Shown here: positions 2,563 through 33,188 of the stretch, in pieces
Position numbering within the stretch: the stretch's first letter is position 1
Layout of the letters: each line of letters begins with the position of its first letter
Source: Cenococcum geophilum
Taxonomy: Eukaryota
DNA length: 64,000 bases
Assembly (NCBI GenBank): GCA_050273025.1
Contig: CP158635.1
Location: forward strand, 16,120,001 to 16,184,000
Direction of reading: 5' to 3'
Position numbers and translations under genes: made by a program
The notes under the pieces: model-generated
Database searches by the model: none
Told to the model about the DNA's origin: nothing
Seen by the model: only the letters and a program-made list of their open reading frames with translations

Positions 2563-5500
2563 TGTTACGGCACTGGTGGAAACCGGTGGATTATGGCGGA
2601 CAGTTGCAGACAGTCGCATACAGTTCCAGACAGTTGCCGTCACGTGACCAGAGGATCGTATATAACGTCGAGCAGCGCCGCCCTCCGTCTCCTTTCCTTT
2701 CTCTAGCTTTAGATCCTCGTTTATAGACAATCCAATCGTACAGGCTTGCGCGACCCTTTTGCCGTGCTCGTGCCTCGATTAACTGAGTCGCTAACATTAT
2801 CTGAAGCTCGTCTACTCTTTTTCCTAAGAAGGAACTTAAAAAATATCTACGGACTACAAATAAGAACAGAATACAGAAGCAGACCCAAAGACTATTACCA
2901 GAACTTAAAGAATAAAACAGAACCAGAAGAACAGAAAAAAATAACAAGATTTATAGAACACGCACAGACCAGAACCCCTGTAAGAACCCTACTAGAAGTT
3001 ACCCTAATAACCGTATTACCATGCCAAGAACCATAGCGGCCGGTAAAGCAGCCGTAGGACCCTCAAATACCTCCGATGGTAAAATAGTAACTAACTTAAA
3101 TTCCTAGGTGGAGCTTGTAGCAGCTAATGCCGAAATTAAATAACTTTAAGAGCTGCTTAAAGCTAGAGAACCCCTTATACCTAGCGAAGAGTTATTAGAC
3201 ACCTAGAGACTCGCTACGGTCCTTAAGGCCCTAGCCTAACGTATAGCATTAGCATTGTTACGGTCCGCGAAGGTCGCGGACCCCCTATTGCTTACAGACG
3301 GAACCGACCCTATATTTGATAATTGGAAGCTTTAATTACAGGATAAGCTTAAAGTTAATGCGGACTACTTCCCTACTACTTAGGCTAAAATGGCCTACGT
3401 CTTCGGCCGTACCGGCGGGGACGTATAGACGCACCTACGTCCTTAATATATATAGGACTTGGCAGATCCCTTCCTCTCTAGAGAAGAGATAATTGTGTAC
3501 CTGTTTTCTATCTATAAGGACCCCTTTAAAGTATAGAACGCCTGACTTAATTATAAAAGCCTAAATATAAAAACGACGGAGACCTTCTTGGCCTTTTAGA
3601 CCCGCTTTCTACACCTAGCCGGCTAGGCTCGAATTCCCTAGGAAGATTTAATGCCAGACCTATTTGACAAGCTTACCCTAGACTTGCAGCGAGCTGTACT
3701 GCTAGTTTTTACTACTGTATAGACGCTAAAGGAACTTACGGACTAGTGCTTGGCTATCGACTAAGGCCTCCGCCGAATTAAGGTACGCGCCGAATGGTAT
3801 AAAGCCAGAAACCCTTTAAATTAGACCACAAGCAATATAAGAACGGCCCGCAATGCCCCGGCACGATTGGTAACCCCCGCAGCACTACCTATATAGCCCG
3901 CCGCCAATTTAGTAGCTAGCCGTGCGGCTAGCCCTGCTACGGGTCTGGCGAATGCTTAGCCTATATACAGTAACCCCCGTATATAGGCCCTTAGTGATTA
4001 AGGAGCTTGCTTCTCTTGTGGTTAGAAAGGCTACTATATAAAGGATTATTTAACAAACATAAAAGCGGATAAGGTTCTATTAATCTAGGAGGATAGCGTA
4101 GAGTTAGAAAAAGAGGAACCCTAGAGGAAGACTCCTCTTTAGGGTTAAAAGGGATTAATATGTTAGATGTTGATCTGGGTTGGCTAGTTAGTAGAAGAAG
4201 CTACACTATCCCTTATACTTTATTCCGTAATAGATACCAAGTTTTAACCTCTGCTTTAGCTAACTCTGGAGTAAATACCTTTGCCTTAATAGACACCTAG
4301 TGTACTATAAAGCTAGCTAACTTTCTAAATGCACCTATTAAAGAACTGCCTAAACTAATTCCTATTCGTGGGTATAACGGGCGGATAGGGCCACCTATTA
4401 CGACTATCTTGCGGATTTACCTCCGTGTTAACGGACGAAGGCAGTATAATATCCCCTTCCTTATTACGGACCTAGGTAGCTACGATATAATTTTAGGGCG
4501 AAAATAGCTAGCCTATTTAGGCTTACAGCTCGATATACGGAGTAGACGGCTTATCTAGCCCGAAACCCTACCCCTAACCCCTTCCTTTATAAAAAAAATC
4601 AGCATTATAATGGAAAACCTTATACGGCCCTAGATTAATATTATTTACTAGGCCGATGCTATGCGTAGGGACTAGGCCTTTGAAAAAGATATATAGCTTA
4701 ATTTATAACGGATCCGTATACTACGTTGCCCCTAGACTACCTATATCACGCCACCCGTATTAAAGACCTAGGAAGTTAGTAGTGACCTAGAAAAGCCCCC
4801 TATGGAGAGCTTAGGCCCTATATAGCTATAAAGAATAGTAAGGGACGTCGGACGTTATACTAAACTGATAGATCGGAGGGATAATCTGCGGAAAATGGAA
4901 TAGGAGCTAAGAAAGATTATAAACCCTAGACCGCAAAATACGGTCTAGAAAACGGCTGTAAGAAAACCAGCGGACCTCCTACTAGTTGATGTCTGCTGTA
5001 TTAGTGCCGTAGGATTCTACTAGAATTTAGTTTAGCCTAATACCGTCACCTTTACGACGAGCTTATATAAAATTGATTAAATAATTAAGGAAAAGGAAAG
5101 CGAGCTTAGCGGATAAGAAAGCGAGCTTATGGATGAGGAACTAGTAGAACAAAAGCTGCCCTATTGATACTAGAAATTTAAGGACGTATTCTCTAAAGCA
5201 GCGTCTAATATACTTCCACCTTACCGACTATATAACTATAAGATTAAGATTAAGCAGGGCAAGGAAAACACCCTTAGCTTTAGCCCCCTCTACGAGTAGT
5301 TTGTTACCGAATTGCAGGCCATAAAGCAGTATCTTATTAATAACCTAAATAAGGGCTTTATTAAGCCTAGCTAAGCCCCTTTTGCCTCGCCTATTTTCTT
5401 TATTAAAAAGCCAAATAGAGGACTCCGCTTCTGTATTAACTACCGTAAGCTAAACAATATAACCCGCAAGGACCGCTATCCGCTGCCCCTACTTAATAAG

Positions 5501-10738: not shown

Positions 10739-13700
10739 TATTACGGACGCTTTAAGTACAATGTTACGACTACTAGAAGAGGAGTCGGAAGAAGCTAGTT
10801 AGTTAATATAGGCACGGTCCAGAATGGAACCGGTAGAACTATGTAACGAGGAATGGTAACTGAGGTCACATAACGTGCTACGTATTAAACGAGAGGAACG
10901 AGAGGAACTTACGTACCTTATGTATAACACATACATCACGTATAAGAAGGATTTCATAGGAGTATAATTGTGTATTTAAGGACCCTTAGTCCCTACCTAG
11001 ATAGTTCCTTCCTTATAGTGATTCTTAGAATATAATTAGAGTTAATCTATTAGGCAACCACTCCACTAGTTATTATTACGTTGTTGACTTCCTGTAATAC
11101 CTACACACCTAGCCTATTAATAGGACCTACCGTAGTTCTTACTACAAGATTCCGTTACACAATCACTACCACAGTTACGGTTTTAAGAAGTTAAATAACA
11201 TGCTACTAAAAGCAGCCACCACAACGCCATTAACGGCGGTAACTACTTCGAGATCAGGTAACGACACCAGTATGGTAGATACTAACTTATAATAACCTAT
11301 AACAGTAGGACAGTTATAAGAGATAGTTAACCAACTAATAGAAAATAATGCGATACTTAAAAATAGGATTAATAGGATAAGAGCAGCAAAGGTTAAGTTA
11401 CCATTAATTAAAAGATTCTTAGAAGAGAGATTAAAGCTTAAAGGATTCCTTACGTAAATACACTTTAAGGTTACGTAAGAGGGAGTAAAGCTGGCAATAA
11501 CTATGGATTAAGTAGCATACGCAGGATTGTTCTTATTAGGAAGAGCACTTAAATGGTTTAAGCCTTACCTTACAGAGATACAAGCAAATGGAATAATAAT
11601 AACTAACTAAGAGGTACGGTTTATGTTCTTAAGTTAGGGAGGGTTTGTAGAGCGACTTATACAAATATTTAGAGATCTAGAGGCAACGACTATAGCGGAA
11701 AGAAAACTCCAAGACATTACGCAACGAACCTTAGTAATTAAGTATATAACGCAGTTCTAAACGCTAGCTATATAAGTTAAGTGAAATAATAAGGCGCTTA
11801 TGGCACAGTATAAATAGGGACTTAAGGCTAAAGTCTAGGATATAATTATTCTAATAGAAGATGCGGACACCCTAAGGGAATTAATAGATTAAGCGATTAA
11901 GATTAACAATAGGATCTTCTAAAGGGAATAGACTAAGAGAGGTTAGGATAGAGTTCTATAGTTATATAAGGCGCAGAGTACGTAATAACTAAAGCTAAGT
12001 TAGAAACTATGGTATGGCGCAGAGCTAATAGACCTAAGTGGTACTAAAGAAACCTATAAGAGATAGAGTAAGAAACTATAGAAACCTAGAGGTTAAGGAT
12101 TAAGTAATTATAGGACTAAAGAGCAAAGGCTAAATCAGGGATCTTAGCAGTAGAAGACGTTTAGGCGGACTCTATAATAAAGTTAATGGTTTAGAGACGG
12201 AGCTTACATAAATTGCAGGAAATAAGGTTATTTCACTAGGGATTATAAAGATAGTTAGAGTTACTATATAATAAAGGGAACCAGACTAGCAGACGATATA
12301 CATATATAGAGGGACAACAGTGTACTACGAGGAACAAAAGAGTGTTTAATTAAAAGTTTCGCGTTTTATTATAATAACGTATACCAAATTTATAAAGACG
12401 CTAAGTATGGCGCAAGCTATTAGCTATAAGAGCTAGAATTAATAAAGTATAAAGGCACTAACGAACTATCTCGCAGATCGGATATTAAGGACGATGAATT
12501 TAATATAGGCGAAATATTTAGTAACAATAAGGTAATAAAGGTAGTTTACTAGGAATATATAAACCTTAGAGAAGTTATATTAGAAGTAGAGACTAGGACT
12601 ACTATAGAGCAAGGTTTAATAACGGGTATTATAACACCGTTGGATACGGTATCCATCGCTTTACGAGACGGAAGGAAGAGTATCTTATAGAGACTAAGTA
12701 AGCAGATAAGTGCTAGTGCTAATTTACCACTTAATAAAGGTAAAAGGCTAAAGGCTTAAGATTCTTAAGATAAGATAAGGTATGCTTAGAGACCTATAAC
12801 GGACGATAACCGATAGAGTAGAGCAGTAGCTTAGTTTAGTAATATACGAATAAGCTTAAGACAAGAGTTCCTAACGGCATAAGACTCTTAAGACAAGATA
12901 AGTGAGATTTAAGACTCTTAAAACGAGATGAGAATACCTAAGCCTAGTTGGACTAAGGTAGGAGCTAAGCTTAAGTTAGAAGCAAGCTTAGGATTAAGGA
13001 TTCTATAGGACTAAGACTTTAATATACGGATAAGGACCATTAATGAGGGAATTAAGAAGTAAGAAGACTTTAAGGATCCACTTATAAGACGCGAAAAGAA
13101 AGAAACTATAGAGAAATTTAGAGCAAGAATTACCTTATAGTAAGAACAGAAACTAAATAAGAGATCTAGAATATTAGGACGTATAAGGGATAGAGTATCT
13201 ATATAAAGAATTACTAATAGACCTAAGATAGGCATACTAAGAGCTAAGTGGCTTACCAAACTAGAACAAGAAGAGGATTTAGGGATTCTAACTAGGTTCA
13301 AAAAATAATATATAAAAGGCTATTACGATACAGTAATAAGAAGATACTTTCTTACGGACAGACTATATACACTTAAGGAGTTGTACTAAAAGTAGTATAG
13401 ACAACAACACAGTAATGAGTAGGAAGATTTCTATATATAGTTAGATGAATAAGTTATTTAAAACCACCTAATTACGGAAAAGGCTATAACTTACATCAAA
13501 GGAGCCTTAATTATAATATTAAAGGATCTAGAGAAGTAATTAGAGGATTAAAAAAGCGAGAGACGAATCTTAGTACCTGCGAATAAAGTCGCAACGCTTA
13601 GATTAACATAAGAAAGGTTTAAACTTAAGAATAAAGATAAGCTAAGAGTTAACCTAAGATACCAGGCGTATTATACGTTGGCATGGATTATATATATAGA

Positions 13701-16700
13701 TAACGCGTATAATATATATAGAGTACTAAAAGATAAGAACTAGAAGTACCTAGTAAGAATATATTAGGCACTAAATAAGATAAAATACAGAAACGCCAAG
13801 TATATATATAATTAGCACCCTATAGAAGTTTAAGAACAAGGGGACTTAATACTTTAACTAAGAAGATTCCTTACGGAAGAATACCTAGATAAACAATAAT
13901 AGTAGGAATATCCAGAGAACACCTGTTTATAGTATATTAAAGAAAAGAAACAAACTAAGTATTAGCCTAAGTTAAACTAAGTACAAATAGGATCTAGCAG
14001 CTATTAGTTGGGAAAAGTAGAGGCCTACAGGACCAAAGGGAGCTAGTGGTAGAGCCTTAGACCCTTAAAGAAATTTAAGGATAACACCTAAATCTAAGAA
14101 TTAAATAGTAAGATTAGCAGTTTAAAGCATTAGTAGACAGTAAAGTAATAAGGAACCATATATTACCAACAATAGTTAAAAGGATAGGACTACTATATAG
14201 AGAGAAGGAGCACCTATATTTATTAGTTACAATTTTAGGAGATCCAATAGCCTATGGAGGAGGCATTATTAATCTTAAAATAGGACCTATTTAGTTAACC
14301 ATTAAAGGGAGATAAATTAAGATGTCTTTTAATATATTACTATTAGGGAATAATAAGGCGATACTAGGAATACCTTAGTTACAGGAATATAATCTAAAGA
14401 TTAATTAGGTTATAGGTTAGGTTAATATTAAAAATACTTAATAATATAAGATGTAATAATAAACTAAGTTAGTATAATACTAAGTTAGAGCGATATATAA
14501 GGAGACTAATTAAGGATTAAGTTATATACTAAAGAGATACTATAAATATAGCAAAAAGTTATAGTTACTAGAAAGTGAAAAGCTGTTAGAGTATATAGTA
14601 TAGGACTATAAAATAGAGTTAAAACTAAAAATAAGTCTATGGTTTTTTTTAACCTATAAGCTTACCAAAGAAGAAAGTAAAGCATTAAAAGAGTTTATCT
14701 AGGAAAACTTATAAAAGGGATATATTAGACTATCGCAATTATTAGCGGGTTATCCAGTACTATTCGTACTAAAGAAAAACGGAAAACTTAGGTTATACAT
14801 TAACTATAGACAATTAAACAATATTATGAGAAAGGATAGGTATCCTTTACCCTTAATTAGCGAAATCTAAAATAGGATAGGTAATGCGCAAATCTTTACA
14901 AAGATAGATCTAAGATAGGCGTACCATCAGATTAGAATTAAGGAAGGTAATAAATAGAAGGCAGCCTTTAGGTTAAAGGAAGGACTATATAAGCTATTAG
15001 TTATATAATTTGGGCTTATAAACGCACTAGTAATATTCTAAAAGCAAATTAATAATATATTAGGAGAACACCTTAATAAGTTTGTTATAGTATACCTTAA
15101 TAATATTATTATCTACTTAATAAGTAAGGAAGAGTATAGGGAACACATTAAATAGGTTTTAAAGAGACTATAAGAAGAACAGATGCTAGTAGCAATTAAG
15201 AAATACGAGTTCTTTATAAGGAAGACCAATTTTATTAGATTTATTATTAAGCTAGGCAAACTAAGCATGGACCTAAAGAAAGTCAAAGCTATAGTAAATT
15301 AGCAAGAACTAGAGAATGTTACACAGTTAAGATTATTTCTAGGGTTTTGCAATTACTATAGGAGGTTTATAGCGCAGTAGTTAAAGAATATTAAGCTATT
15401 TACTTAATTAATAAAGAAAGAGGAACTATAGGTATAGAAAAAGGAATAGAAAGAATTGTTTAAAGAACTTAAGGAGTTATTTACCTAGAAACTAATCCTT
15501 AAAATCTACTAACTAAAGTTAGAGACAGTAGTTAAGATAAATGTATTAGACTTTGCATTAGGAGCGTACTTTCTATAGAAATATAAAGATAAATAGCACC
15601 TAGTGGTATACTATAGTTAAAAGATAATACTACCAGAACTAAACTATAACATCTATAACAAGGAGTTATTAGGTATAGTTATAGCACTAAAAGAATAAAG
15701 GGTATTCTTATAAGGAATAGAAAAACTATTTATAGTTAAGATGGATTATAAGAACCTAATAGGATTCCTAATAATAAAGGAACTTAACTAAAAATAGGTT
15801 AAATGGGCAGAAATACTTATAGACTACTATTTTAAGATTTAGCATACTAAGGGTATAGATAATGTATAAGCAGACGCTTTAAGTAGAAAGGCTAAACTAC
15901 AAAATAATAAGAAGCCATTAGGGGCTTTATTATAAAAAGATATAGATAGGTTAATTAGATACAATCATCCAAAAATTATAATAACTTAAGAGAAAAAGTT
16001 AGAAAGAGTCTATAAGATACCAGAAAGCTTTTAGGTATAAAGAATTCTAAAGGTATAGCTAGAAGATCTATAGATAAATATATATAAGAATTAAGAAGCT
16101 AAGTATATCCTAAAAAGCATAACAGAGTATTTTATAAAAGACTTTTATAAGGAAATAACTTAAGAACATAACAGAGCCATGGGCTTAGTATTAAGACTCT
16201 AAGAGGAGTATATTATTAATAGAATCTAGGGTTTAGTATGGAAAATTATTAAGAAATATTTAGATTGCTAAAGAAATAAACTAATAAGGTATAAGCCGTA
16301 TAGAGGGCTATAACCTATTAAAATACCAGAAAGACTATAGGAGGTTATATTATAGGACTTTATTATTAAGTTACTAAAGTTAAAAGATCCTATTACCGGA
16401 TAAGATTATAATGTAATTTTAGTAATAGTAAATAAGCTTATAAAGTGGGGATACTTTATAGCATATATAGAAGAAATCTTAGTAGAAGATATCGCTAAAA
16501 TCTATATTAAGGAAGTATTTATAAGGTATAGAGCACTAAGCAAAATTATATTAGATAGAGATCTAAGATTTATAGTAGCATTCTAGAAAGTATTTTTAGC
16601 GGAGTAAGGAGTTTAAGTAGTAACTTCTACTATATATTATCTACAGACAGACGGTTAAATAGAAAGATTAAATTAGACACTAGAGCAGTATTTAAGGCAT

Positions 16701-19700
16701 TATATTAATTATATATAGAATAATTAGGTATTATTATTACTAGTTATATAGTTTATATATAATGCCACACTATAGGAAGAAATAGGTATATTACTATTTA
16801 AGGCGAATTACGGATACAAACTAAGAATATTATTATTATTACGCTAAGTAAAGAAGATAAGTAGCACAGCCAAAAAAAGAATGGAGACTTTAATAATTCT
16901 TTATAAAAACCTTATAGAAACAGCTAAGGTAGTATAGTAAAGAATAAAGAAGTACTATAATACTAAAAGATCTAAAGGACTAGATCTTAAGGAGGGAGAT
17001 AAAGTATAGCTACTATACAAAAATTTTAAGAGTTAACAACTAAGTAAAAAGTTGGACTATATTAGATTAGGACCTTTTAAAATTATTTAGAGGATTTTAC
17101 TAGTTACGTTTAAGTTAAACCTACTAGCTAGAATAAAAATCTACCCTATATAGCATATTATAATGCTAGAGCTAGTATATAGAAATATTAAGCCACTAGT
17201 TTATAAAGTAGACACGTATAGAGGATAAGAGGAAGATAAATAGCAAGTTTTAAAGATCGTTAATTATAAGGATATAGATAATAAAATATAGTATAAAGTA
17301 AAGTAGATAGGCTATAATGAAACTACCTAGGAGCTACTAGAAAATTTAAAGAATACTATAGGAAAGGTATAGAAGTATTAGAAGAAAATAGGTCAGGTAA
17401 TATAGATAGGGAAAAATTATTAAAAAATAAGTTACTTAAGGGGGACCTAGGAAGAGCGACTGCGGAACTACTTAAAGTTATTTCCTTTACTAGTAGAGGA
17501 GAGTTAGTTCTTTTATTACTAAGTTTCTATAGACCTTATTCTATAAGTTTCTACTCCTTAAAATAGACCTTCTTATAAACTTTCTTAAGACAAAGTAGAT
17601 AGGTAAACGCTATAATATAAGTATTTAAGGCCTTCTATTCTATATCTGTTTGTATTAACTTAATAATACAAGTAAGTCATATCCCGGGGCACGAAATACG
17701 TATAGTATCGTATGCTCTTTAGGATAGTGGTGACTGTCGATTCTATTGAGGTAGACTACGTGGTCTATATACTGACGCGCCTCCCCCTGATTAGTCAGCA
17801 CCTAAGTGGTTGGTGCACCAAACGCGTAACCACGCGTTTGGTGTACCACGTGCTGTAATCATACACTGGCGGTACTTGGAAATGACTCAATTATATCTAA
17901 CCTCCGTAATCGCTTCAATGGAGCCGTAAAACACAAAAGAAATACATAGGAAATCCCTCCCGAGGTGCCTTCTGGGCTGCCTTCCAAACGGTGCTCTAAG
18001 CTGGTCGTAAGTCCTACTTGCGGTCCGTAAAGTAGACCGTACGGCCTTCCAACGGGCCGTAAATGAACCGTAAGTGCTCCGTTAGTCTCGTTCCACCCAT
18101 TCTTAGTTATAGCATCTGCTGGGTTGTCTTCGGTGCTGATCCATTTGACCTCCGTAATCTCATGTCGTTCGTAGGCCTAACGTAAGCACATTAGGTCGAC
18201 CATAAGCCTCTTCTCCTATGTCGTACCTAGTTTAACTAGGCAGTCGTAGAGGGACTTTAAATCGGTGCATAAAACCAGGGGTAGCTGCTCCAATTATAGG
18301 ATCTTCTGGATTATTGATTTGATTGCGGCTGCTATATTAAAGCCATAGGCTAGTGCATATAGTTTAGAAGCTAGTACGCTGCGGGTTACTCGTTTACATT
18401 TAATTGAAGACCAATATAGTATATTTGCGTCCTAATTACGGTCCATAAGTACAATTACGAAGCCGATTTGCGATGATAGGTCCCTATTATTGGCAAAGGA
18501 GGCGTCCATAAATACTATTACGCTAAGGGAATTTAGGTCCAGTGGTACAAAAGTAAGTCCTCTTATTGCATTGTTAATTTGCCACTAAATACGCTTATTT
18601 AGCTGCTTAATATCTTCCTCTTGCGGATCTATTACCTGGGCCGCAAAGGATAAGTCGTAGGCAGATTTGGGTTGACAGACTATAGCAATATAGGCGCCTC
18701 TTACACATTATGCGACGTATTAGTCCTTCATATTTACGGTCTTGCGGGTCTCTCCGCGGGAACTGGTAAGGTCCGTAGGCTTTGCTATAACGAGCCTTAA
18801 GTTTTAAGTTTGGCGTTCCTAAGTTAACTAGATTAGGTTGCCCTTTTATATAATTAAGCCTCTATTAAACTTAACTAGGGTTTACTTAGTTAACTACTCT
18901 CGCGGCTTTGCTAGGAACTTAGCCTTTTATAATTTATTCTCTTTAGCGTCTGTAAAAGTCCGGTCCGCTATAAAGAGGGTATTATCTATTTAGAGTCCAA
19001 TAATACTAAGGCCGTTTAATAGTGTATATAGAAGGCAGGGGTTATAGGTTAACTGTTCCGTTTTAAGTTTACGGACGTAATGCTAGTGGTACGTTTTAAA
19101 CCAGTGGTTTCTAGCTTCTGGCACTCTATAAAGGGGTTTTATAACCCGTAAAATTGTTCCTAGTTATAAGTTAAGCTCGAGGGGTAGTTATATAAAGATG
19201 TCCCTACTTAGGTAGGTATTAGATTGTACGTAGGCTTATAAGATATCCCGTAAGTAGAGGGCTATAGGCTTAGTTTACTATAGTCCAGGCATAAGTGCAA
19301 GTATAATCTGTTAACTGACTCATTAAATTATAGGCGATTATATAAGGACTAAGCCCTTTCCCTAGTCGTTATAGGCTTATATAACGAGCCTTAACTTCTT
19401 AAAGGCTTTGTTAGTACTAGGGTGCTTAATCTCGTTAACGAAGCGTAAGTTAAATATACGGACGCCTTGCGGAACGTCTTTCTCCGTTATAACCGCAAAG
19501 ACGCCCTTCTTAAGTAGTCCGTTAATCTCTTTACGTTATAAGTCCGTAAAAGGGGTTTCCTATACTAGAACTAATATATCCGTAGGCAGAGATTGCTTTA
19601 TAAATGTGCCTGCGGAGGTTAGGTGGTTCTCTGTTACAGGGTTCTCCGTTATAGGGTGCTTTTAGGGGCGTCCTCGGCTACGCTTTACGGCAGGTTTAGT

Positions 19701-22700
19701 AGGTTTGCGGGGGACTTCTAGAGTAGATAGGGGTGTTTCTAGTTTATCTAGTTCGGCGGATGCTTCCAGTTTATCTAATTTAACGGCACAGGTATTTTTA
19801 GACCGAAAATAGGGTTTTACGGACGTGCTTCTGAAGTTAGTCGGTCCGCTAGGGAGTTATATACAACACGTTTCATCTTCTGTGGCCAGTAAACGGTAAG
19901 GTCCAGTCCAATTGCCGCTCTCACGCCATATGAGGACTTTAGAATTAAGCGGGAGGTCATAAACTGAAGTTGTGTTAGGTCCGTTGCGGTAATATAGAGC
20001 GCTGTTAACGGCTTATTTAGCCCGTAATTTAACTATTTCGGCCATTGCCTTCTATATTATAGCTACTTGTTCCGTAATAGACGGGGCAGCAGGGCCTAGG
20101 TTACTTATCTTTAGGTAGGCTCCGTAAACTAAGAGGGTAGGTACTAGTCCGTTAGGGCCAGCGGTGTTATTAACGGCTTTTACGGCCATCTATAAAGCCA
20201 GTTCCTTTTAGATATCCTTATACTCGTCCGTAATAATCTAGTAAGCTCTCTATAGGGCTAGGTGAGCTCGCTCAACAAGCCCAACAGACCAGTACGCCTT
20301 AACTAGAACGGCTTTTATTAAAATAGCCATGGCCGTAGCATACTATTAGAATTCCTTGCTGATAAAGTTCCTACTAGCGTTGTGGGTAATATACTTAGGA
20401 GGTCCAAGGTATGTATCAATCTAGTAGGTCCGTAAAATGTCCCAAGTATGTTTTATAGATATATTTTGCAACCAACAGGCGGCTTAATAGTGGGTTGCCT
20501 CGTCAATTATATATAATACTGGACTGCCGTTAATATACATAATGTCCACGTATACTAAGTGGTTGAAGTCAAGGTCCTTATAAAGGGTAAACTTAAATCT
20601 GCTTAGGGAACGTCCGTATTTCTAGCAAAAAGAGCAGTATTTGGTCAGGTGGTTGATTGCCTTCCTATTAACGTCGTCGTGTCTAAAGCGTTCAAGGACT
20701 CTATATAGCTTTTCGGCTAACGGGTGGCCAAAGCGGCGGTATAGTTGGTGGATTTTAGTACTGGTAAGGTAGCACGGGTTATAGTCAAAAGATTCCTAAA
20801 TGTAGGTCTATAAAGTCTCTCCCTATATAAGGAACGGGTGTCCAAATCGTCGTATAATTAGTAGGGTAACATGCTTACTTCCTGGGGCAGTTGCGGGGCC
20901 AATTACGGTGTCCGTAACATTATTATAGTAAACTTATAACCTATCTATATCCGTAAAACAGAGTAGAAAAGGGGTGTCCGCTTTTACTACGTGGAAGTTA
21001 ACTAGGCCAATTAGGGTCTTAACTGCCACTAATCCAATTAATATGGTTAAGCCGATGCCGAATTAGACATTTACGGCCCCAGTTTATATAGTATTAATGT
21101 CCGTATTATCATTTATAGTGGTCTTATATACAAGGTATTATCCGTAACCTATAGTAGATTTCTTAGAGGCACCTATATCAATTATAACGCCGTAGAATTC
21201 TTTAGGGGTATAGCGTTTAGTGGTAATATATGCAAATGGGTCCTATTCGCGGTCCGTGACGTCTATAATAGGTCTAACGGGTATGTTTATAGGCTAGTTT
21301 TCGGGTGCAATTAAGTATACGAAGGAGCGGTCAGCTAATACGGTCGTAATATTAAAGGCTTAGCTGTCCGTAAAAGGTCCAAAAGTAGTTAGAAACGTCT
21401 CTAAGGTCTCCTGTTCCTAAGTATCTGAGTTAAAGTTAATTATAAGGGCTTCTATTGACTCATTAGGAGGCTCTTCTACTTCCTCTCCTTTGTATTCCAA
21501 AATAAACTGGTTAATACGGTTATCAAATCTCTTCTTGGACTTAGCACGTTCTTCCTAGGTATACCTTGTAGACCAACATCCTTCCTTACTGCATATAAAG
21601 CACTTTTAGCTAGTTTGTCTGCAGGGGTATGCTTTTGTATAGAAGTTGCTATAGGGGTTACGGGTAGGACCTGGTCGATGCGGGTGCTGCTAGCGGTAGC
21701 GGCGGTCCGTAAAGTAGGCGTCTAAGTTAGTTTGCGGGTTTTGCAGGTCCGTGATAAAGGCTTAGATACTATCTAGCGGGTTTAAGACTTCGTACGTTAC
21801 AATGGAGGACCGTAAATCGTTAATAAGACTAGCTACGGTGTCTACAGGCTTATAGTAGGCGTATTTGTAGGGTTCTACTTCCTGGTAAGCTGTAATAAGC
21901 TTGTTGTATAGGAAGTCGTCCGTTTAAAGCTTAATATTAAGGCCGTACTATAGGTGCCGGAGGTCTTTGATAAGAATTTGCAGGCACTCTATAGTCGACT
22001 TTTCGGTATTCTTATTGATTACGGTCCGTAACTTGATCGCATTCCATTAGGTAAGGATATTACGCCTATATTCTGGCCCTTTAAAGAAGTTATATATAGC
22101 TTTGTATAGCTTATTAAAGGAGACACTAAGGGGGTTACTCTTAAGGTTGGTATAGTAGTGGTTAAGGGCTAGGCCGCGCAGCATAGTAGAATAGGCTTGG
22201 CTAAATTCCTATTTAGGAATATCAGCCTTCCAACAGAGGTCCGTAAAGATAGTAAGTTTAAAGTTAAAGTTATCGTTTTTACCGCTATACTTGGATTCGT
22301 TGGTATAGAGCTTAGCTAAGTTGGCTAGTTCCTTACCGTAGGTCTTTACTTAAGTAGGTTGCGGATCTGTGACTTAGGCGGTCTGTGGATCTGTGGCTTA
22401 GGCAACAGGAGGGTTTTAGTCTATATTTTAGTTTACAGGGGTATTATAGTCCGTAATTTAGGTTACGGGGGTATTACGGTCCGTAACTTAAGTACTAGAT
22501 ATACTTTAGCCCGTAAGATTAATTCCGAAATCGCTTGGGTTTATAGGACAAATTTGGTTAAGTAGGTTAGGTATAAGGCCAGCAATGCCATTAAGTTTAG
22601 GAGAAGCAAAGAGTTTATTAGTGACTTTAACCTAGTCTAGGATTTCCTCTTTAGTCTATTCCGTTTGGTCCTCCTCCTATATTATGTTATATAAGGACCG

Positions 22701-24526
22701 TGTAATAGTAACTCGTTTATCCTTTTTAACCTATACACCTTGGTGATATAAAAGGGTTCGTAGGTTATGGATAGCAGTAGGGTTATAAGTCTTAAGAATA
22801 TCTTCCATAAAGTCCGCAAAGTCTTCTTTATATTACTCCCACAGGTCGTTATTTATAAGCTTAAAATATCCGTATTTAAGGATTTTATACTTAATGTAGT
22901 TGTTAACGTTAGCTATAGACGTAAGATTGACTCCTTATCTCTATTTCTCTCGACCTTTATTAATCTGCTTGCTTGTGTCTACTATACTATATAGTATAGT
23001 ATATAGCGGGTGGTAGTAGCTTATAACGGGTGGGGGAGGTCTTATAACGGTCCGTAAAATTAATTAAAGGGTCCGTAATAGTTTAAAAGGTCTTATAATA
23101 GTCCATAACGGCGATTAATAGGTCCGTAATAGTTTATAGGGGGGCAGGGGGTTTCCGTAAAAGGTCCGGAGGGGTTTAAGGTTTAAGGGGTTAAGGATAG
23201 GGGGTTCCGTAAGGGTCTATATTCATGTTTATAAACTTCTAGTAAACCGTACTAAGACTTAAATAAGTATATAGAGTTAGTAATAGTTCCGTAATCCCCG
23301 GCTTCCGACCTTCTAGTAGGTCGTACTAGGAGTCTAAACGGGTGGTCGCTGTCGTGTATCGCTTAGGGGGAGGTGTCGAGTGATTGCTAATCTGTGCGCG
23401 CATACTAATTAGTGTTTATATCAACTTAATGATATAAGTGAGTTATATCCCAGGGCACGAAATACGTATAGTATCGTATGCTCTTTGGGATAGTGGTAAC
23501 TGTCAATTCTATTAAGGTAGACTACGTGGTCTATATACTAACGCGCCTCCCCCTAATTAGTTAGCACCTAAGTGGTTAGTGCACCAAACGCGTAACTACG
23601 CGTTTGGTGTACCACGTGCTGTAATTATACAATATCCTAAGAACGCTTAAGCTCTATAAGGGCCTATACTAGGTTACTATTAAGCTTTATAGCAGTAAAT
23701 TAAATATAAAACCCTATAATAAATTACTTAGGGAACTTAGAGACTATTAAGAGTTATAGGACGCGTATACTTAGCGTTAGAAATAGAATAAACATTATAG
23801 AATAACCGGATGTTCACTTTAGTACACTCTAAATAAGAAGAGGGTTACTAAGATAAGGGACTTGCTAACGTAATATAAACTAACCCCTTTTTCGCATAAT
23901 AAGAATATAGAGACGGTATAATTTCACTAAGCGATAATATAGCAGTAATAGTGCGGGCACAACATTGCGCGTATAAAGAAAAGGATGCTTTAGGCATAAT
24001 AAGTAACAATATTAACTAAATTAACTAGACGGATATTATACCTCTAGTAAACAACTTAAAGATATTAGGTATCTTTAAGAATAAAGATAAAAAGGAGGGA
24101 GATAGTATTACGGACGCTTTAAGTATAATATTATAACTACTAGGAGAGGAGTTAGAAGAAGCTAGTTAGTTAATATAGGTATAGTCTAGGATAGAACTAG
24201 TAGAACTATATAATAAGGAATAGTAACTAAGGTTATATAATATACTACGTATTAAATAAGAGGAATAAGAGGAACTTATATACCTTATATATAATACGTA
24301 TATTACGTATAAAAAGGATTTTATAAGAGTATAATTGTATATTTAAGGACCCTTAGTCCCTACCTAAATAGTTCCTTCCTTATAGTAATTCTTAGAATAT
24401 AATTAGAGTTAATCTATTAGGCAACCACTCTACCAGTTATCATTACGTTGTTAACTTCCTGTAATACCTACACACCTAGCCCATTGACAGGACCCACCGT
24501 AGTTCTTACTACAAGGTTCCGTTACA
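10739..24526 (+). mobile_element. Gypsy chromovirus family B copy B1, interrupted by Copia C1
   Basis: 421-bp LTRs 10739-11159 and 24106-24526; TSD TTATA inside the A2 gag zinc knuckle; ORF1 from ATG 11200 to ~14050; pol ~14010-17430 with LVDS protease, RT, RNase H, integrase and chromodomain. Confidence 0.95.
17647..23631 (-). mobile_element. Full-length Ty1/Copia element C1 (RIP-inactivated)
   Basis: 219-bp LTRs 17647-17865 and 23413-23631; TSD ATATC; minus-strand order CFICSKEGCWS (~21600), GVIID(T)GAS protease (~21180), L(H)RRFGHP integrase (~20730), RT motifs RDI(S)QAYVQS, KPLY(G)VPEA(G)NHW and GL(Q)(T)D(D)TL (~19250-18980), RNase H. This PR-IN-RT-RH order is Copia. Confidence 0.95.
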
Positions 24527-25308
24527 TTATACGGTTAACTAGGCTACCCTATAAGGAACTGCCTAATAAAGGTAAAGACAAATAAGGTCCTATTAATTTA
24601 GGAGGATAGTATAGAGTTAGAAAAAGAGGAACCCTAGAGGAAGACTCCTCTTTAGGGTTAAAAGGGATTAATATGTTATATATTAATCTAGGTTAGCTAG
24701 TTAATAAAAGAAGCTGCACTATCCCTTATACTTTATTCCGTAATAGATATTAAGTTTTAACCTCTGCTTTAGCTGACTTAGGAGTAAATACCTTTACCTT
24801 AATTAATACAAAGTGCGCTGCAAAACTGGCTGACTTTTTAAATGTACCCCTTAAAGAACTACCTAAACTAATTCTTATTTATGGGTATAATGGACGGATA
24901 GGGCTACCTATTATAACTATCTTATAGATCTACCTCCGCGTTAATAAATAAAGGTAGTATAATATCCCCTTCCTTATTATAGACCTTAGAAGCTATAATA
25001 TAATCTTAGGGAGAAAATAGCTAGCCTATTTAGGCTTATAGCTTAATATACAGAATAGGCAGCTTATCTAGCCTAAAACTATGCCCCTAACGCCTTCCTT
25101 TATAAAAGAGATTAGTATTATAATAGAAAACCTTATATAGCCGTAGATAAATACCATTTACTAGGCTAACGCGATGCGTAGGGACTAGGCCTTTAAAAAG
25201 GATATATAGCTTAATCCGCAACAAATCTATATACTACGCCACCCCTAAACTGCCTATATTACGCCACCCGCACTAAAGACTTAGGAAGTTAGTAGTGGCC
25301 TAGCTAAG

Positions 25309-28300
25309 TATAACGGAACCTTGTAGTAAGAACTACGGTAGGTCCTATTAATAGGCTAGGTATATAGGTATTATAAGTAAGTCAACAATGTAATAATAAC
25401 TAGTAGAGTGGTTGCCTAATAGATTAACTCTAATTGATTCTAAGAATTACTACAAGGAAGGAACTATCTAGGTAGGGACTAAGGGTCCTTAAATACATAA
25501 CTGTACTCTTATAAAATCCTTCTTATATGTAATATACGTAAGGTATATAAACTACATAAGTTCCTCTTATATCTCGCGTTTCTTGCGTAGCACGTTATAT
25601 AACCTTAGTTACTATTTCTTATTATATAGTTCTACTAGTTCTATCCTAAACCATACCTATATTAACTAACTAGCTTCTTCTAACTCCTCTCTAAGTAGTT
25701 ATAATATTATACTTAAAGCGTCCGTAATACTATCTCCCTCCTCTTTATCTTTATCCTTAAAGATACCTAATATCTCTAGGTCGTTTACTAGAGGTATAAT
25801 GTCCATCTAATTAATTTAGTTAATATTATTACTTATTATACCTAAAGCAATTTCTTCTTTACACGCACAGTATCGTGCTCGCACTATTACTATAATACTA
25901 TTACTAGGTAAGATTATACCATTTCCGTATTCTTATTGTTCAAAAAAGGGGTTAGTTTATATTATACTGGCGAGTCCTTTATCTTAGCAACCCTCTTTAT
26001 ATTTAAAGTATACTAAAGCAAACGTTTAATTATCCTATAATATTCGCTCTATATCTAACGCTAAGTATACACATCCTATAACTCTTAATAGTCTTTACAT
26101 TCCCTAAGTAATTTGTCTTAGGGTCTTATGTTTAATCTACTACTGTGAAACTTAATAGTAACCTAGCGTAGGCCCTAGCTAAACTTAAGCGTTCTTATAA
26201 TATAGAACAGAAGGCCTTAGATACTTATATTATAGCGTCTGCTTAGCTACTTTGTCTTAAGAAAGTTTATAAGAAGGTTTATTTTAAGGAGTAGAAACTA
26301 GTAAAATAAGGTCTATAGGAACTTAATAATAAGAAAACTAACTCTCTTTTAATAGTAAAGAAAACAGCTTTAAGTAGTTCAGCAGTTACTCCTCCTAAGT
26401 CCCCCTTAGGTAACTTATTCTTTAGTAATCCTTCCTTATTAATATTACCTAACCTATTCTCTTCTAATACTCCTATACCCTTTCTATAGCGTTCTTTAAA
26501 TTTTCTAGTAGCTCTTAGGTAGTCTTATTATAGCCTATCCACTATACCTTATACTATATTTTATTGTCTATGTCCTTATAACTAACAATCTTTAAAACTT
26601 GCCATTTATCTTCTTCTTACCCTTTATATATATCTACTTTATAAACCAATGGCTTAATATTCCTATATACTAGCTCTAGCATTGCGATATGCTATACTAG
26701 GTAGATTTTTATCTTAGCTAGTAAGTTTAACTTAAATATAACCGGTGAAATTCTCTATAGAATTTCAAAAGGTCTTAGTCTAACGTGGTCTAACTTCTTA
26801 CTTAGCTGTTAACTTTTGAAATTTTTGTATAGTAGCTACACTTTATCCCCCTCCTTAAGATCTAGTCCCTTAGATCTCTTAGTATTATAGTACCTTTTTA
26901 TTCTTTATTATACCACCTTAGCTATTTCTATAAGGTCTATATAAAGATTTATTAAATCCTTTATCCTTTACTTAGCTATACTACTTATCTTCTTTACTTA
27001 ACATAGTAATAATAATATTCTTAGTTCGTATCCGTAATTTGCCTTAAATAGTAATATACCTATTCCCTCTTATAGTGTTATATTGTATATAAACTATATA
27101 ATTAGTAATAATAATACCTAATTATTCTATACATAATTAACATAATACCTTAGATACTGCTTTAGTATCTAATTTAGTCTTTCCGTTTAACCGTCTGTCT
27201 ATAGATAATATGCGGTAAAAGTTACTACTCTAACTTCTTACTCCACTAAGAATACTTCCTAGAATATTACTATAAATCTTAAATCTCTATCTAATATAAT
27301 CTTGCTTAGTGCTCTATATTTTATAAATACTTCCTTAATATAGATTCTAGCGATATCTTCTGCTAAGATTTCTTCTATATATGCTATAAAGTATCCCTAC
27401 TTCATTAGCTTATCTACTATTACTAAGATTACGTTATAATCTTATCTGGTAATAGGGTTTTTTAACTTTAGTAACTTTATAATAAAGTCCTATAATATAA
27501 CCTCCTATAGTCTCTCTGGTATTTTAATAGGTTATAGCCCTCCGTATAGCTTATGCCTTATTAGTTTATTTCTTTAGTAATCTAAATATTCCTTAGTAAT
27601 TTTCCGTGCTAAACCCTAGATTCTATTAATAATGTACTCCTCTTGGAGTCTTAATACTAAGCCTATAGCTCTATTATGTCCTTAAGTTATTCCCTTATAA
27701 AAGTCTTCTATAAAATGCTCTGCTATGCTTCTTAGGATATACTTCGCTTCTTAGTTTTTATATATATCCATCTATAGATCTTCTAGCTATGTTTTTAGAA
27801 TTTATTATGCCTAAAAGCTTTTTAGTATCTCGTAGACTCTCTCTATTATATCTTTTTAAGTTACTATAATTTTTGGATAATTATATCTAATTAATTTATT
27901 TATATCTTTTCGTAATAGAGCCCCTAATGGCTTCTTATTATTTTATAGTTTAGTTTTTCTGCTTAGAGTATCCGCTCGTATATTGTCTGTACCCTTAGTA
28001 TACTAAATCTTAAAATAGTAGTCTGCAAGCGTCTCTGCCTATCTAACCTATCTTTAGCTAAGTTCTTTTATTGTTAGAAACCCTATTAGGTTTTTATAAT
28101 CCGTTTTAACTATAAATAGCTTCTTTATGTCTTATAAGAATGCTTTCTATTTCTTTAGTACTATAACTATATCTAACAACTCCTTATTATAGATGTTATA
28201 GTTTAACTCTAGTAGTGTTATTTTTCTACTATAGTATACTACTAGGTGCTAACTATCTTTATATCTTTATATAAAGTATGTCCCTAGTATAAAGTCTAAT

Positions 28301-31300
28301 ACATCCATTTTAACCACTATCTTTAACTTTAGTTAGTAGATTTTAAGAATTGGTTCCTAGGTGAATAACTCCTTAAGTTCTCTAAATAACTTCTTTTACT
28401 TATCCTCCCATACCTATAGTTCCTCTTTCTTTATTAGTTAAGTAAATGGCTTAATATTCTTTAACTATTGTGCTATAAACCTCCTATAGTAATTGCAAAA
28501 CCCTAGAAATAATCTTAACTGTGTAACGTTCTCTAGTTCTTACCAATTTACTATAGCTTTAATTTTCTTTAGGTCTATGCTTAATTTGCCTAGTTTAATA
28601 ATAAATCTAATAAAATCGGTCTTCCTTATAAAGAACTTGTATTTCTTAATTGCTACTAGTATCTGTTCTTTTTATAGTCTCTTTAAGACCTATTTAACGT
28701 GTTCCCTATATTCTTCCTTAGTCATTAAGTAGATAATAATATTATTAAGGTATACTATAATAAACTTATTAAGGTGTTCTCCTAATATACTATTAATTTA
28801 CTTCTAGAACGTTACTAGTACATTTATAAGCCCGAATTGTATAACTAATAGCTTATATAGTCCTTCCTTTAACCTAAAGGCTGCTTTCCATTTGTTGCCT
28901 TCCTTAATTCTAATCTAATAGTACGCCTATCTTAGATCTATCTTCGTAAAGATTTGCGTATTACCTATCCTATCTTAAATTTCACTAATTAAGGGTAAAA
29001 GATACCTATCCTTTCTTATAATGCTGTTTAACTATCTATAGTTAATGTATAACCTAAGTTTTCCGTTTTTCTTTGGTACGAACAGTACTGGATAACCTAC
29101 TAATAACTGTAATGGTCTAATATATCCCTTTTATAAGTTCTCCTAGATAAACTCTTTTAGTGCTCTACCTTCTTCTTTAGTAAGCTTATAGGTTAGAAAG
29201 AACCTTAGACTTATTTCTGGTTTTAACTCTATCTTATAGTCCTATACTATATACTCTAACAGCTTTTCACTTTCTAGTGACTATAACTTTTTGCTATATT
29301 TATGGTATCTCTTTAGTATATAACCTACCCCTTTCTTGGTTTCCTTATATATTGCTCCGACTTAGTACTATACTAACTTAGTTTATTATTGCATCTTACA
29401 GCGTTAAGTATTTCTAATATTAACCTAACCTGTAACCTAATTAATCTTTAGATTATATTCCTATAACTAAGGTATTTCTAGTATTGCCTTATTATTCCCT
29501 AATGGTAATATATTAAAAGACATCTTAATTTATTTTCCTTTAATGGTTAACTAAATAGGTCCTATTTTGAGATTAATAATACCTCCTCTATAGGCTATTA
29601 GATCTCCTGAAATTATAACTAATAGATAAGGGTACTCCTTTTCTCTATGTGGTAGTCCTATTTTTTTTAACTGCTGCTGGTGATATATGGTTCCTTATTG
29701 CTTTACTATCTACTAATGCTTTAAACTGCTAATCTTGCCACTTAATTTATAAATTTAGGTATCGTCTTTAAATTCCTTTAAGGGTCTAAGGCTCTACTAC
29801 TGGCTCCCTCTGGTCTCATAGGCCTCTACTTTTCCTAATTATTAGCTACTAGATCCCATTTATACTTAGTCTACTTTTAGCCAATACTTAGTTCGCTTTT
29901 TATCTTTAATATACTATAGATATATATTCTCTAGGTATTCCCACCACTATTATCCATCTAGGTATTCTTCTATAAGGAATCTTCCTAGCTAAAGTATTAA
30001 GTCCCCTTATTCTTAAACTTCTATAGGGTGCCATCTATATATATACTTAGCGTTTCTGTACTTTACCTTATCCGGTGCCTAATATATCCTCATTAGGTAC
30101 TTCCGGTTCTTATCTTTAGGTGCTCTATATATATTATATATATTATCCACACATGCAATCCACGCCAACGTGTAATATACTTAGTGTTTTAGGTTAACTC
30201 TTAGCTCGTCTTTACCCTTAAGTTTAAACCTCTGTTATTCTAATCTAAGTATTACAACTTCGCTTACAGGTACTAAGATTTGTCTTTTACTTCTCCAGTC
30301 CTCTAATTACTTCTTTAGATCTTTTAATATTATAATTAAGGCTCCTTTAATATAAGTTATAGCCTTTTCCGTAATTGGGTGGTCCTAAATAACTCGTTCG
30401 TCTAACTATATATAGAAATCTTCCCACTTATCATTATATCGTTGCCTATACCACTTTTGGTATAGCTCCTTAAGTATATACAGTTTATCCGTAAGAAAGT
30501 ATCTTCTTATTACTACGTCATAACAGCCTTTTATATGTCGTTCCTCGAACCTAGTTAGAATCCCTAGATCCTCTTCTTATTCTAGTTTAATAAGCCACTT
30601 AGCTCTTAGTATGCCTATTTTAGGTCTATTAGTAACCCTTTATACGGGTACTCTGTCCCTTATACGGCCTAGTGTACTAGATCTCTTATCTAGTTTCTAT
30701 TCTTACCATGCAGTAATCCTTACTCTAAATTCTACCATGGTTTCTTTTTATTCACGTCTTACAAGTGGATCCCTAAAGTTTTTATACTTCTTAATTCCCT
30801 TATTAATAGTTCTCATTTATATATTAAAGTCTTAATCCCATAGAATCCTTAATCCTAAGCTTGCTTCTAACTTAAGCTTGGCTCCCGCCTTAGTTTAACT
30901 AGGCGTCCGTAGTGTTCTCATCTTATCTTAAGAATTTTAAATCTTACTTATCTCGTCTTAAGAGTCTTGTGCCTTTAGGAATTCTTATCCCAAGCTTATT
31001 TATATATCTTTAAACTAAGCTGCTGCTCTGCCCTATTAGTTGTCGTCCGTAGTAGGTCCTTAAGCTATCCTTATCCTTTCTTTAGAATCTTAGATCTCTC
31101 TTATCTTATCTTAAGAATCTTAAGCCTTTAGCCTTTTACCTTTATTAAGTAGTAAGCTAGCACTAGCAGTTATCTGCTTGCTTAATCGTCTTTAGATATT
31201 GCTCCTTCCGTCTTATAAAGCAATAGATGCCGTATCCAACGGTATTATAATACCCGTTACTAAACCTTACTCTATGGCGGTCCCAGTCTCTACTTCTATT

Positions 31301-33188
31301 ACATTATTAAGGTTTAGATACCCCTAGTTAGTTCCTTTTTCTTCCTCGTCGCTATTAATTAATAAGCACTCTAACTCTATTATTATTATTGCTAATCTTT
31401 ATCCATATATTGCTATAACATCTTAATCTAGCTTGTAGAGTTAATCCTTTTCTTTATCTAACTCTTTGGTTTCTCTAAGTCCTTTTAACTCTAGCTCTTA
31501 TAGCTAATAGCTTGCGCCATACTTAGCGTCTTTATAAACTTAGTATGCGTTATTATAATAAAACGTAAAACTTTAGATTAAATATTCTTTTGTTCCTCGC
31601 AGTATACTATTATCCCTCTATACGTATATGTCGTCTACTAGTCTAGTTCCCTTTATTATATAGTAACTCTAACCATCTTTAAAATCCCTGGCAAAATGAC
31701 CCTATTTTCCGTAATTTATATAAGCTCCGTCTCTAAACCATTGCTTTTATTATAGAGTCCGCTTAAACGTCTTCTGCTGTTAAGATTCTTAGTTTAGCCT
31801 ACGCTCCTTAGTCCTATAATTACTTAATCCTTAACCTCTAGGTTTCCATAGTTTCTTACTCCATCTCTTATAGGTTTCTTTAGTACCGCTTAGGTCTATT
31901 AGCTCTACGCCATACCATAGTTTCTAACTTAGCTTTGGTCATTGCGTACTCTGCGCCTTATATAACTATAGAACTCTATCCTAACCTTTTTTGGTCTATT
32001 CCCTTTGGAAGATCCTATTATTAATCTTAATTACTTAATTAATTAATTCCCTTAGGGTGTCCGCATCTTCTATTAGAATAATTATATTCTAAACTTTAGC
32101 CTTAAGTGCTTATTTATACTGTGCTATAAGCGCCCTATTATTCTACTTAACCTACGTTACTAGCGTTTAAAACTGCGTTGTATACTTAATCGCTAAGGTT
32201 TACTGCGTAATATCTTAGAGTTTTCTTTCTACCGTAGTTATTACCTCTAGATCTCTAAATATTTATATAAGTTGCTCTATAAACCCATTCTAGCTTAAAA
32301 ACATAAACCGTACCTCTTGGTTTATTGTTATTATCCCGTTTGCTTATATCTCTATAAGGTAAGGCTTAAACCATTTAAGTGCTCTTTCTAATAAGAATAA
32401 TCCTGCATACGCTATTTAATCCATAGGTATTGCTAGCTTTGCTCCTTCTTGTAAAACCTTAAAATGCATTTACGTAAGAAATCCTTTAAGCTTTAATTTC
32501 TCTCCTAAGAACCTTTTAATTGATAGTAACGTAACCTTTACTACGCCTATCCCGTTAATCCTATTTTTAAGTGCCGTATTATTTTCCGTTAATTAGTTAA
32601 CTATTGCTTATAACTGTCTAACCGTCACTAGTTGCTATAAGTTAGTGTCTGCTATACTAGTGTCGTTTCCTAATCTTAAGGTGGTTGCTGCCGTTAATGG
32701 CGTTGTGGTGGCTGCTTTTAGTGGCATATTGTTTAACTTATTAAAACCGTAACTAGGTAGTAATTATATAACGGAACCTTGTAGTAAGAACTACGGTGGG
32801 TCCTGTTAATAGGCTAGGTGTATAGGTATTGCAAGTAAGTTAATAACGTAATAATAACTGGTGGAGTGGTTGCCTAATAGATTAACTCCAATTATATTCT
32901 AAGAATTACTATAAGGAAGAAACTATCTAGGTAGGGACTAAAGGTCCTTAAATACACAACTATACTCCTATAAAATCCTTCTTATACGTGATGTACGTGA
33001 GGTACATAAGCTACGTAAGTTCCTCTCGTATCTCGCGTTCCTTGCGTAGCACGTTATATGACCTTAATTACCATTCCTCGTCACATGGTTCTACTGGTTC
33101 CATCCTAGACCGTGCCTATATTAACCAACTAGCTTCTTCCAACTCCTCTCCAAGTAGTTATAACATTGTACTTAAAGCGTCCGTAACA
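25309..33188 (-). mobile_element. Gypsy chromovirus family B copy B2, full length, uninterrupted
   Basis: LTRs 25309-25729 and 32767-33188; TSD CTAAG; gag ATG at 32727; reverse-complement homologue of B1. Confidence 0.95.
25838..26500 (+). pseudogene. Antisense accessory ORF of family B (Cys6-cluster-like domain plus coiled coil); putative intron 26067-26121
   Basis: Same indel-free frame in B1 (intact ATG at 23997, minus strand), B2, and B3 (from 59883, minus strand); stop codons are RIP-type; 3' end approximate. Confidence 0.7.

Follow-up and report, generated by a model that had tools for sequence, protein, structure and literature searches.

Do fungal retrotransposons carry genes of their own besides gag and pol, and can such a gene be read backwards from the end of the element? 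Long terminal repeat (LTR) retrotransposons are usually thought to need gag and pol only. The question is raised by a stretch of 64,000 nucleotides (nt) of Cenococcum geophilum (contig CP158635.1, positions 16,120,001 to 16,184,000; hereafter the window, whose own numbering we use throughout). This stretch is a nest of fungal retrotransposons damaged by repeat-induced point mutation (RIP), in which one Ty3/Gypsy chromovirus, family B, has three full copies, B1, B2 and B3. Each of them has an antisense frame between pol and the 3' LTR, on the strand opposite to gag-pol. Our analysis indicates that this frame is probably the RIP-inactivated remnant of a genuine third gene of the chromovirus, with two exons, and we propose that its product was a regulator encoded by the element.

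The antisense frame in three damaged copies

The sequence-only reading that drew attention to this locus placed the beginning of the frame about 110 bp inside the LTR edge in all three copies, and our measurement agrees: the start codon of B2, at 25838, is 109 nt inwards of that edge (25729) and past the polypurine tract. Reading the copies codon by codon also bears out what had been said of the start and cysteine codons. Only B1 (23997) retains the ATG, which has become ATA in B2 and B3; in the alignment of 59 copies described below it is ATG in 8 and ATA in 51. Among the six cysteines, Cys2 (25937) survives as TGT in B2 only, and Cys5 (26009) as TGT in B1 and TGC in B3; the four remaining positions (25928, 25958, 26000 and 26036) are TAT or TAC in all three copies. 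Each copy has lost five of the six.

In B2, the gene lies on the forward strand. Its exon 1 (25838-26066) has 76 codons plus one nucleotide, includes the six-Cys motif (25928-26038, five of the six codons reading TAT) and is broken by premature stops at 25985 and 26027. A phase 1 intron of 55 nt follows (26067-26121), with the donor AT, attributed to RIP, the acceptor AG and a branch-like TAAC motif at 26109-26112. Beyond this gap the downstream frame is shifted by one base and reads as a long, charged, helix-like segment. This segment extends to about 26330 in exon 2 (26122-26489), which continues with a Ser/Pro-rich tail, contains six premature stops and ends at the TAG of 26487-26489, rather than at 26500 as first given. 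Once joined, the B2 product would have about 198 amino acids.

The other two genes are on the reverse strand. That of B3 (59232-59883) comprises exon 1 (59883-59655), the intron (59654-59600) and exon 2 (59599-59232). That of B1 is in two parts, the first of which (23632-23997) includes the ATG (23997-23995), exon 1 down to 23769, the intron (23768-23714) and the start of exon 2 up to another element, C1. The rest of exon 2 (17356-17646) lies on the far side of this insertion. C1 splits the exon at the equivalent of about 26199-26203 in B2, in agreement with the earlier remark that it had inserted into the antisense frame of B1, and is flanked by an ATATC duplication. There are eight premature stops in B2, seven in B3 (one in exon 1 and six in exon 2) and at least two in exon 1 of B1. 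All three copies in the window are dead, by RIP in each case and also by the C1 split in B1, and the antisense gene has no present-day function there.

Relatives of the frame

Relatives were searched with a profile made from the three exon-1 translations, in which stops were read as X. It matched 216 open reading frames (ORFs) of 41-133 amino acids in a set of 5.8 billion proteins, and 177 representatives at E<=1e-3 in a library of 1.84 billion proteins clustered at 50% identity. These matches are unnamed ORFs from JGI/ENA assemblies of metagenomes, and the majority are RIP-mutated themselves. A word-index search for longer proteins, which took in lengths of 208-2000 amino acids, gave one read-through ORF. 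Pfam had no match for the X-read translations of the window. The nearest clusters of the ESM Atlas are Ascomycota proteins of 204, 192 and 142 amino acids, and the closest (204 amino acids, score 0.90) was automatically named a Zn(2)-C6 domain protein, which we take as a lead only.

With one member of the family, P0199, as query, a metagenome scan yielded 79 loci that carry RIP-mutated copies of this element family; the contigs encoding P0199 and P0272 are not among them. Those long loci that were examined match B2 colinearly at 70-91% identity. The B2-anchored alignment of 59 copies combines B1, B2 and B3 with 56 of these locus alignments. On the B2 stretch beginning at 25437, each of the 56 starts no later than position 400 and extends to position 2000 or further; shorter ones were dropped. 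The order LTR, antisense gene, pol is colinear in the three window copies and in the 56 kept locus alignments. The claimed frame is represented by unmutated ORFs of 152, 110, 94 and 86 codons. The longest is P0272, found through the P0199 search, which has the full N-terminus, the six cysteines and the helical segment in an unmutated ORF of 152 amino acids.

Stops and selection

An aggressive consensus in which RIP is reversed was rejected as a test of the ORF, because it opens long frames on both strands. Stops shared by the copies are more telling. In the exon-1 frame, no stop is common to at least 85% of the 59 copies from 25811 to 26104. In the exon-2 frame there is none at this level from 26136 to 26486, after which comes the TAG, with T and A in all 59 copies and G in 57. 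The only exception in the spliced path is 26133, a RIP-prone Gln codon that is a stop in 92% of the copies and intact in 8%. The third forward frame and the reverse frames have stops shared at this level inside the region. A stop at 25808 that is universal in the 59 copies reads Trp in other ORFs of the family, so that shared stops are strong but not absolute evidence.

Selection was assessed with transversions, which RIP does not make. By codon position, transversion-polymorphic sites number 24, 9 and 30 in exon 1 (of 76 each) and 28, 24 and 43 in exon 2 up to 26330 (of 69 each). The LTR is flat (31, 29 and 23), and in pol the order is mirrored, as it should be for a gene on the opposite strand. 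We then scored synonymous transversions against expectation in all six frames. In the claimed frame of exon 1 they are 30 of 63 (expected fraction 0.243, p=5e-5), and the remaining five frames have p>=0.09. The Cys domain gives 17 of 31 (expected 0.224, p=9e-5) and the first part of exon 2 (26124-26330) gives 39 of 95 (expected 0.263, p=0.0013). One complementary 'shadow' frame of the latter has p=0.013, and a shadow frame of the same kind is seen in the pol control, whose own frame has 100 of 201 (expected 0.167, p=4e-27).

The sequence-only reading had staked the gene on purifying selection in the antisense frame, on a GT donor in other copies, and on the lack of true stops and frameshifts. 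All three expectations find backing in the relatives: synonymous transversions are enriched in the claimed frame, GT is kept at the donor of 15 of the 59 copies with AT in the other 44, and the spliced path has no true stop, the one stop in it that most copies share (26133) being a RIPped Gln codon. Judged from these sequences, the frame is a genuine accessory gene of the chromovirus family, once functional and under purifying selection while the element was active.

A short intron

A gap of 55 nt resembling an intron (26067-26121), with a donor mutated by RIP and a TTAG end, was part of the original description, and the 59 copies sustain it. The first position of the donor is G in 15 copies and A in 44, the following T is present in 58, and an A at this place is the product of RIP changing TpG to TpA. 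In 58 of the 59 copies the acceptor is AG, and in 58 the length is 55 nt; a TAAC precedes the acceptor by 10-13 nt. When all loci were scanned for the motif, 65 sites came up, of 55 nt (59), 61 nt (5) or 54 nt (1), with 20 GT and 45 AT donors. Within the intron, each flanking frame meets a stop in 95% or more of the copies, so that the two can be joined only by its removal.

The junction itself is found in P0272. This ORF aligns in two pieces with intron-bearing genomic copies (L008, L040, L036, L068 and others), and its residue 80 is a Trp, exactly the T|GG codon made by GT-AG splicing, in a sequence that is continuous across the junction. By its GT, its AG, a length usual for fungi and a junction present in an uninterrupted ORF, the 55-nt stretch qualifies on sequence grounds as a spliceosomal intron. 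It would have been able to persist because the genomic RNA of the element is antisense to the gene.

Both exons are seen in 33 loci, with a gap that is mostly of 43-67 nt (one of 28 and one of 148) and of 118-124 nt in five. The latter correspond to a sub-lineage (including L002, L004, L046 and L067) in which this longer gap between exon matches takes the place of the 55-nt intron. P0199, an ORF without the intron, has its exons joined not at GT-AG but at a short direct repeat of the long-intron sub-lineage, with the frame kept; its junction looks like a deletion or a template switch rather than splicing. The intron is also more conserved than the exon that follows it, with 12 of 55 sites transversion-polymorphic against 95 of 207 in 26124-26330, which may reflect splice signals packed in a very short intron, or a function on the sense strand.

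The region upstream of the start codon

The sequence before the gene is unusually conserved. Transversion-polymorphic sites per 60 nt drop from 31-36 in 25500-25620 to 2-6 in 25620-25800, and the whole stretch of about 220 nt before the ATG (25620-25837), which takes in the inner part of the LTR, the polypurine tract and a leader of 80 nt, has 2-8. This fits an antisense promoter or leader, and it also fits the known cis functions of the region. An upstream in-frame ATG at 25799 is used by some ORFs of the family, which begin with MSVW. A TATAAT in B2 was considered as a TATA box and discarded: it is a product of RIP and becomes GTGTGA once RIP is reversed. In one RNA run with the same species label we found 11 partly fitting reads and no splice joint, a result that has little weight because the copies are RIP-dead.

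Six cysteines and a long helix

The spacing C-x2-C-x6-C-x13-C-x2-C-x8-C is shared by the window copies and P0272. In 189 family segments, found with a regular expression restricted to C or Y at these six sites, C has frequencies of 0.41, 0.41, 0.14, 0.22, 0.65 and 0.34 at the successive columns, the rest being Y. All six cysteines are kept in P0272, P0253 and P0204. The mixture of C and Y, together with Cys in the unmutated relatives, points to ancestral TGY codons under RIP, since an ancestral Arg would leave R and H too. The reconstruction of Cys from TAT and TAC codons, put forward from the window alone, is thus confirmed by relatives that read Cys, not Tyr.

The arrangement calls to mind the Zn(2)-Cys(6) clusters of fungal regulators (PF00172; GAL4, PPR1), whose spacing is C-x2-C-x6-C-x5..12-C-x2-C-x6..8-C. 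Alike are the six cysteines, the triads C-x2-C-x6-C and C-x2-C-x8-C, which both fit this range, the Pro before each, and, as in GAL4-type dimers, the long helix after the Cys module. The differences are a score below the Pfam cut-off, a linker of 13 residues that is one beyond the range, a fold that is not predicted, and a first triad poor in basic residues. In canonical clusters, such as that of GAL4, the residues between Cys2 and Cys3 are basic and read the DNA; here P0272 has a single Lys, and the family consensus is similar. Pfam gave no Zn_clus match for P0253 and P0204, with six cysteines each, and a search of the ESM Atlas with the Cys domain alone found nothing carrying a Pfam family. 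We found no genuine Zn2Cys6 domains in the DNA searched from which to make a comparison profile.

We modelled the protein in two AlphaFold runs, one with P0272 and 82 family sequences and the other with an 86-amino-acid member. For P0272, the N-terminal helix is confident, a helix spanning residues 77-151 has a predicted local distance difference test score (pLDDT) above 95, and short helices are placed at both C-x2-C sites with low confidence (pLDDT 50-65). The heptad register of this helix beats shuffled sequences, of which 17 in 2000 reach the observed value. The full protein, about 198 amino acids long, would start with a short N-terminal helix, continue with the conserved six-Cys module and a helix of some 75 residues, and end in a tail rich in Ser and Pro. 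A six-Cys module followed by a long helix is supported; a GAL4-type cluster dimerising on DNA is conjectural.

A regulator encoded by the element?

Several steps would turn such a gene into a regulator. The messenger RNA would begin in the 3' LTR or just inside it, at the conserved stretch of about 220 nt upstream of the ATG. In the protein, the Cys module would bind zinc and the long helix would pair into a coiled coil, and the product may act on transcription from the LTR or on silencing by the host. A layout of this type is known from human T-cell leukaemia virus type 1 (HTLV-1), whose HBZ gene is antisense, spliced and transcribed from the 3' LTR, and encodes a basic leucine zipper (bZIP) factor. 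Both genes are antisense at the 3' end of a retroelement, both are spliced and both encode a small protein with a long helix, which pairs in HBZ and would do so in the fungal product. In the fungal one, however, a Cys module replaces the basic region, and no bZIP domain is among its Pfam matches at E<=10, so that the likeness is an analogy of design only, not of kinship.

Several results count against this interpretation, and most concern the protein. The claim of a Zn2Cys6-like cluster holds as a likeness of spacing and falls short in the profile and in the models. Zn_clus scores 13.6 bits in P0272 and 13.5 bits in P0126, with a cut-off of 21, and only positions 18-36 of the profile, its second half, align, onto the first Cys triad. 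The sequence match to PPR1 in the PDB has E=0.56 and is the same half-match. Nothing was found when the PDB was searched with the family profile, nor did Foldseek find a match in it. The Cys domain has pLDDT of 50-65 in P0272 and below 50 in the 86-amino-acid member. The segment after the intron, which had been called heptad-like, deserves the name in one of three natural sequences: a single register beats the shuffles in P0272, but not in P0286 and P0199, where 434 and 1169 of 2000 shuffles reach the observed value. Other points concern the gene. Exon 2 evolves fast, with 46% of the sites of 26124-26330 transversion-polymorphic, above the LTR. The last 156 nt before the stop (26331-26486) have no frame with significant constraint, and the tail of the gene may overlap pol or be poorly constrained. 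No TATA-like element upstream of the ATG survives the reversal of RIP. Finally, P0272 may derive from DNA or from RNA, and an intron-less DNA copy would yield the same ORF.

These points feed an explanation that accepts the protein and disputes its kind. The product would be real without being a GAL4-type DNA binder, its cysteines forming another zinc or disulphide module that acts through contacts with proteins or RNA (Gag, integrase, chromatin or silencing factors). The half-profile match below cut-off, the long linker, the lone Lys where canonical clusters are basic, and the failure of both AlphaFold runs and of the PDB searches to give a confident fold or a counterpart are what one would then expect. 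On the other hand, the spacing otherwise agrees with a binuclear cluster, such weak sequence matches as there are involve only Zn2Cys6 proteins, and the nearest Atlas cluster bears that name. We consider this a serious contender that is nevertheless unlikely. It is also conceivable that the antisense transcription unit is what matters, its RNA pairing with the 3' end of the genomic RNA to give small RNAs or interfering with transcription, and that the protein is secondary. The gene does fall within the part of the element that is copied into genomic RNA, its tail coincides with pol frame that is still open, conservation in its intron and upstream region equals or exceeds that of the exons, and retrotransposons of Botrytis are, in passages of PMC8365987, known sources of small RNAs. 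We judge this quite improbable, as a role for RNA only would leave the frame-specific synonymous enrichment and the six conserved Cys columns unexplained, and the reading frame has been preserved across two different intron-less forms.

The same synonymous enrichment bears on whether the gene is useful to the element at all. It could be a captured passenger, a fragment of a host gene, since additional ORFs of LTR elements have often been captured (as stated in parts of PMC7264820) and the Atlas neighbours are ordinary 'hypothetical proteins' of Ascomycota of 142-204 amino acids. Yet neither the location of the gene nor its intron changes over 177 clusters diverging by more than 50%, and its synonymous fraction matches that of pol, whereas a useless passenger in a replicating element should decay; we leave a slim chance to this explanation. 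That there is no gene, the frame being a product of the freedom given by reversing RIP in AT-rich DNA and its homologues the noise of gene callers, has been largely refuted, and we give it next to no credence. An aggressive consensus does open long frames on both strands, the matches are all unnamed metagenome ORFs, and the universal stop at 25808 reads Trp elsewhere. Against this stand the four unmutated ORFs of 86 to 152 codons in the claimed frame, the fact that only this frame combines synonymous enrichment with few polymorphisms at the second codon position and many at the third, and P0272, which joins both frames exactly at the GT-AG junction.

Known antisense genes of retrotransposons

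If the frame is the remnant of a third gene encoding a regulator, as we propose, its position has a precedent among fungi. The brtn gene of the Boty-like elements of Botrytis and Sclerotinia was reportedly the subject of Zhao et al. 2011 (Virology 417:248). Passages in three later papers present it as an additional gene of unknown function that runs antisense to gag-pol in the interval from pol to the 3' LTR (PMC8365987, PMC4227169, PMC7264820), and one on Monilinia mentions a transcript similar to BRTN (PMC5987419). Our gene matches this layout. It is situated between the pol end and the 3' LTR, its stop falls within the tail of pol, and it is antisense to a gag-pol with RVT_1, RNase H and SH3_Tf2-1 domains and, in a less mutated copy, a Chromo match of 23.4 bits that is just short of the cut-off. 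Described in these terms, both are antisense extra genes of chromodomain-bearing Gypsy elements of fungi; unlike what we observe, the passages citing brtn mention no intron, Cys motif or helical tail, in a comparison made by description only. No database match of our gene carries the BRTN name. The antisense layout is therefore already known from brtn, and is less new than the sequence-only reading assumed. Our literature searches, whose coverage did not include the brtn paper itself, turned up no paper on a fungal retrotransposon whose antisense strand encodes a protein with a Cys cluster or a coiled coil.

Plant Gypsy elements such as Grande, RIRE2, Retand and PvRetro13 also have additional antisense ORFs, according to parts of PMC7264820. 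As described there, these resemble the fungal gene in position, in orientation, in being conserved across the copies of a family and in their unknown function; they belong to another kingdom and mostly to lineages other than chromoviruses, and this comparison too is by description only.

A wider generalization is tempting, though we would sooner bet against it: many chromoviruses of Ascomycota may encode an antisense, spliced, zinc-binding coiled-coil regulator, with its promoter within the 3' LTR or beside it, that tunes LTR transcription or blunts silencing, with brtn as one member. If true, fungal retrotransposons would have a counterpart of HBZ, and a large family would have gone unrecognised because RIP erases its cysteines. 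Even short of this, a conserved backward third gene on which selection is as strong as on pol implies a factor of the element's own. The family seems large, given its 177 clusters at 50% identity. Annotation pipelines miss the gene because RIP turns its Cys codons into Tyr and scatters stops along it. Its frame, its intron and its Cys motif now provide a concrete target in fungi with active copies.

The elements of the window

The copies of family B all have LTRs of 421-427 nt and a 5-bp target duplication. B1 (10739-24526, forward strand; duplication TTATA) is interrupted by C1, B2 (25309-33188, reverse strand) is flanked by CTAAG, and B3 (52451-60412, forward strand) by TATTT. C1 itself (17647-23631) has TG..CA ends and lies within the antisense gene of B1, the two copies of its 5-bp duplication being at 17642-17646 and 23632-23636.

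In B2, all of whose own parts are on the reverse strand, alignment of the two LTRs places the 3' LTR at 25309-25729 and the 5' LTR at 32767-33188. The polypurine tract (25733-25757) is a purine run that abuts the start of the LTR in B1, B2 and B3. The gag-pol gene (26257-32598) occupies one frame of 2114 codons, broken by 165 RIP stops but by no frameshift; this is the signature of RIP, and the damage consists of point mutations throughout. Pfam recognises in it RVT_1, two RNase H models and SH3_Tf2-1, the Tf2-type SH3 domain of integrase. A chromodomain-like segment lies at about 26466-26600, where the damage is too heavy for B2 to score; in a less mutated copy (L030), Chromo reaches 23.4 bits, just under its cut-off of 25.1.

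The first near-universal stop of the pol frame is at 26259-26257 (TAA in 55 of 58 copies). As this frame is open down to 26259, it may overlap the tail of the antisense gene by about 230 nt (26257-26489). The segment of about 0.8 kb between the ends of B1 and B2 (24527-25308) partially matches positions 4020-4319 of the window, a repeat (D6) that belongs to another repeat family.

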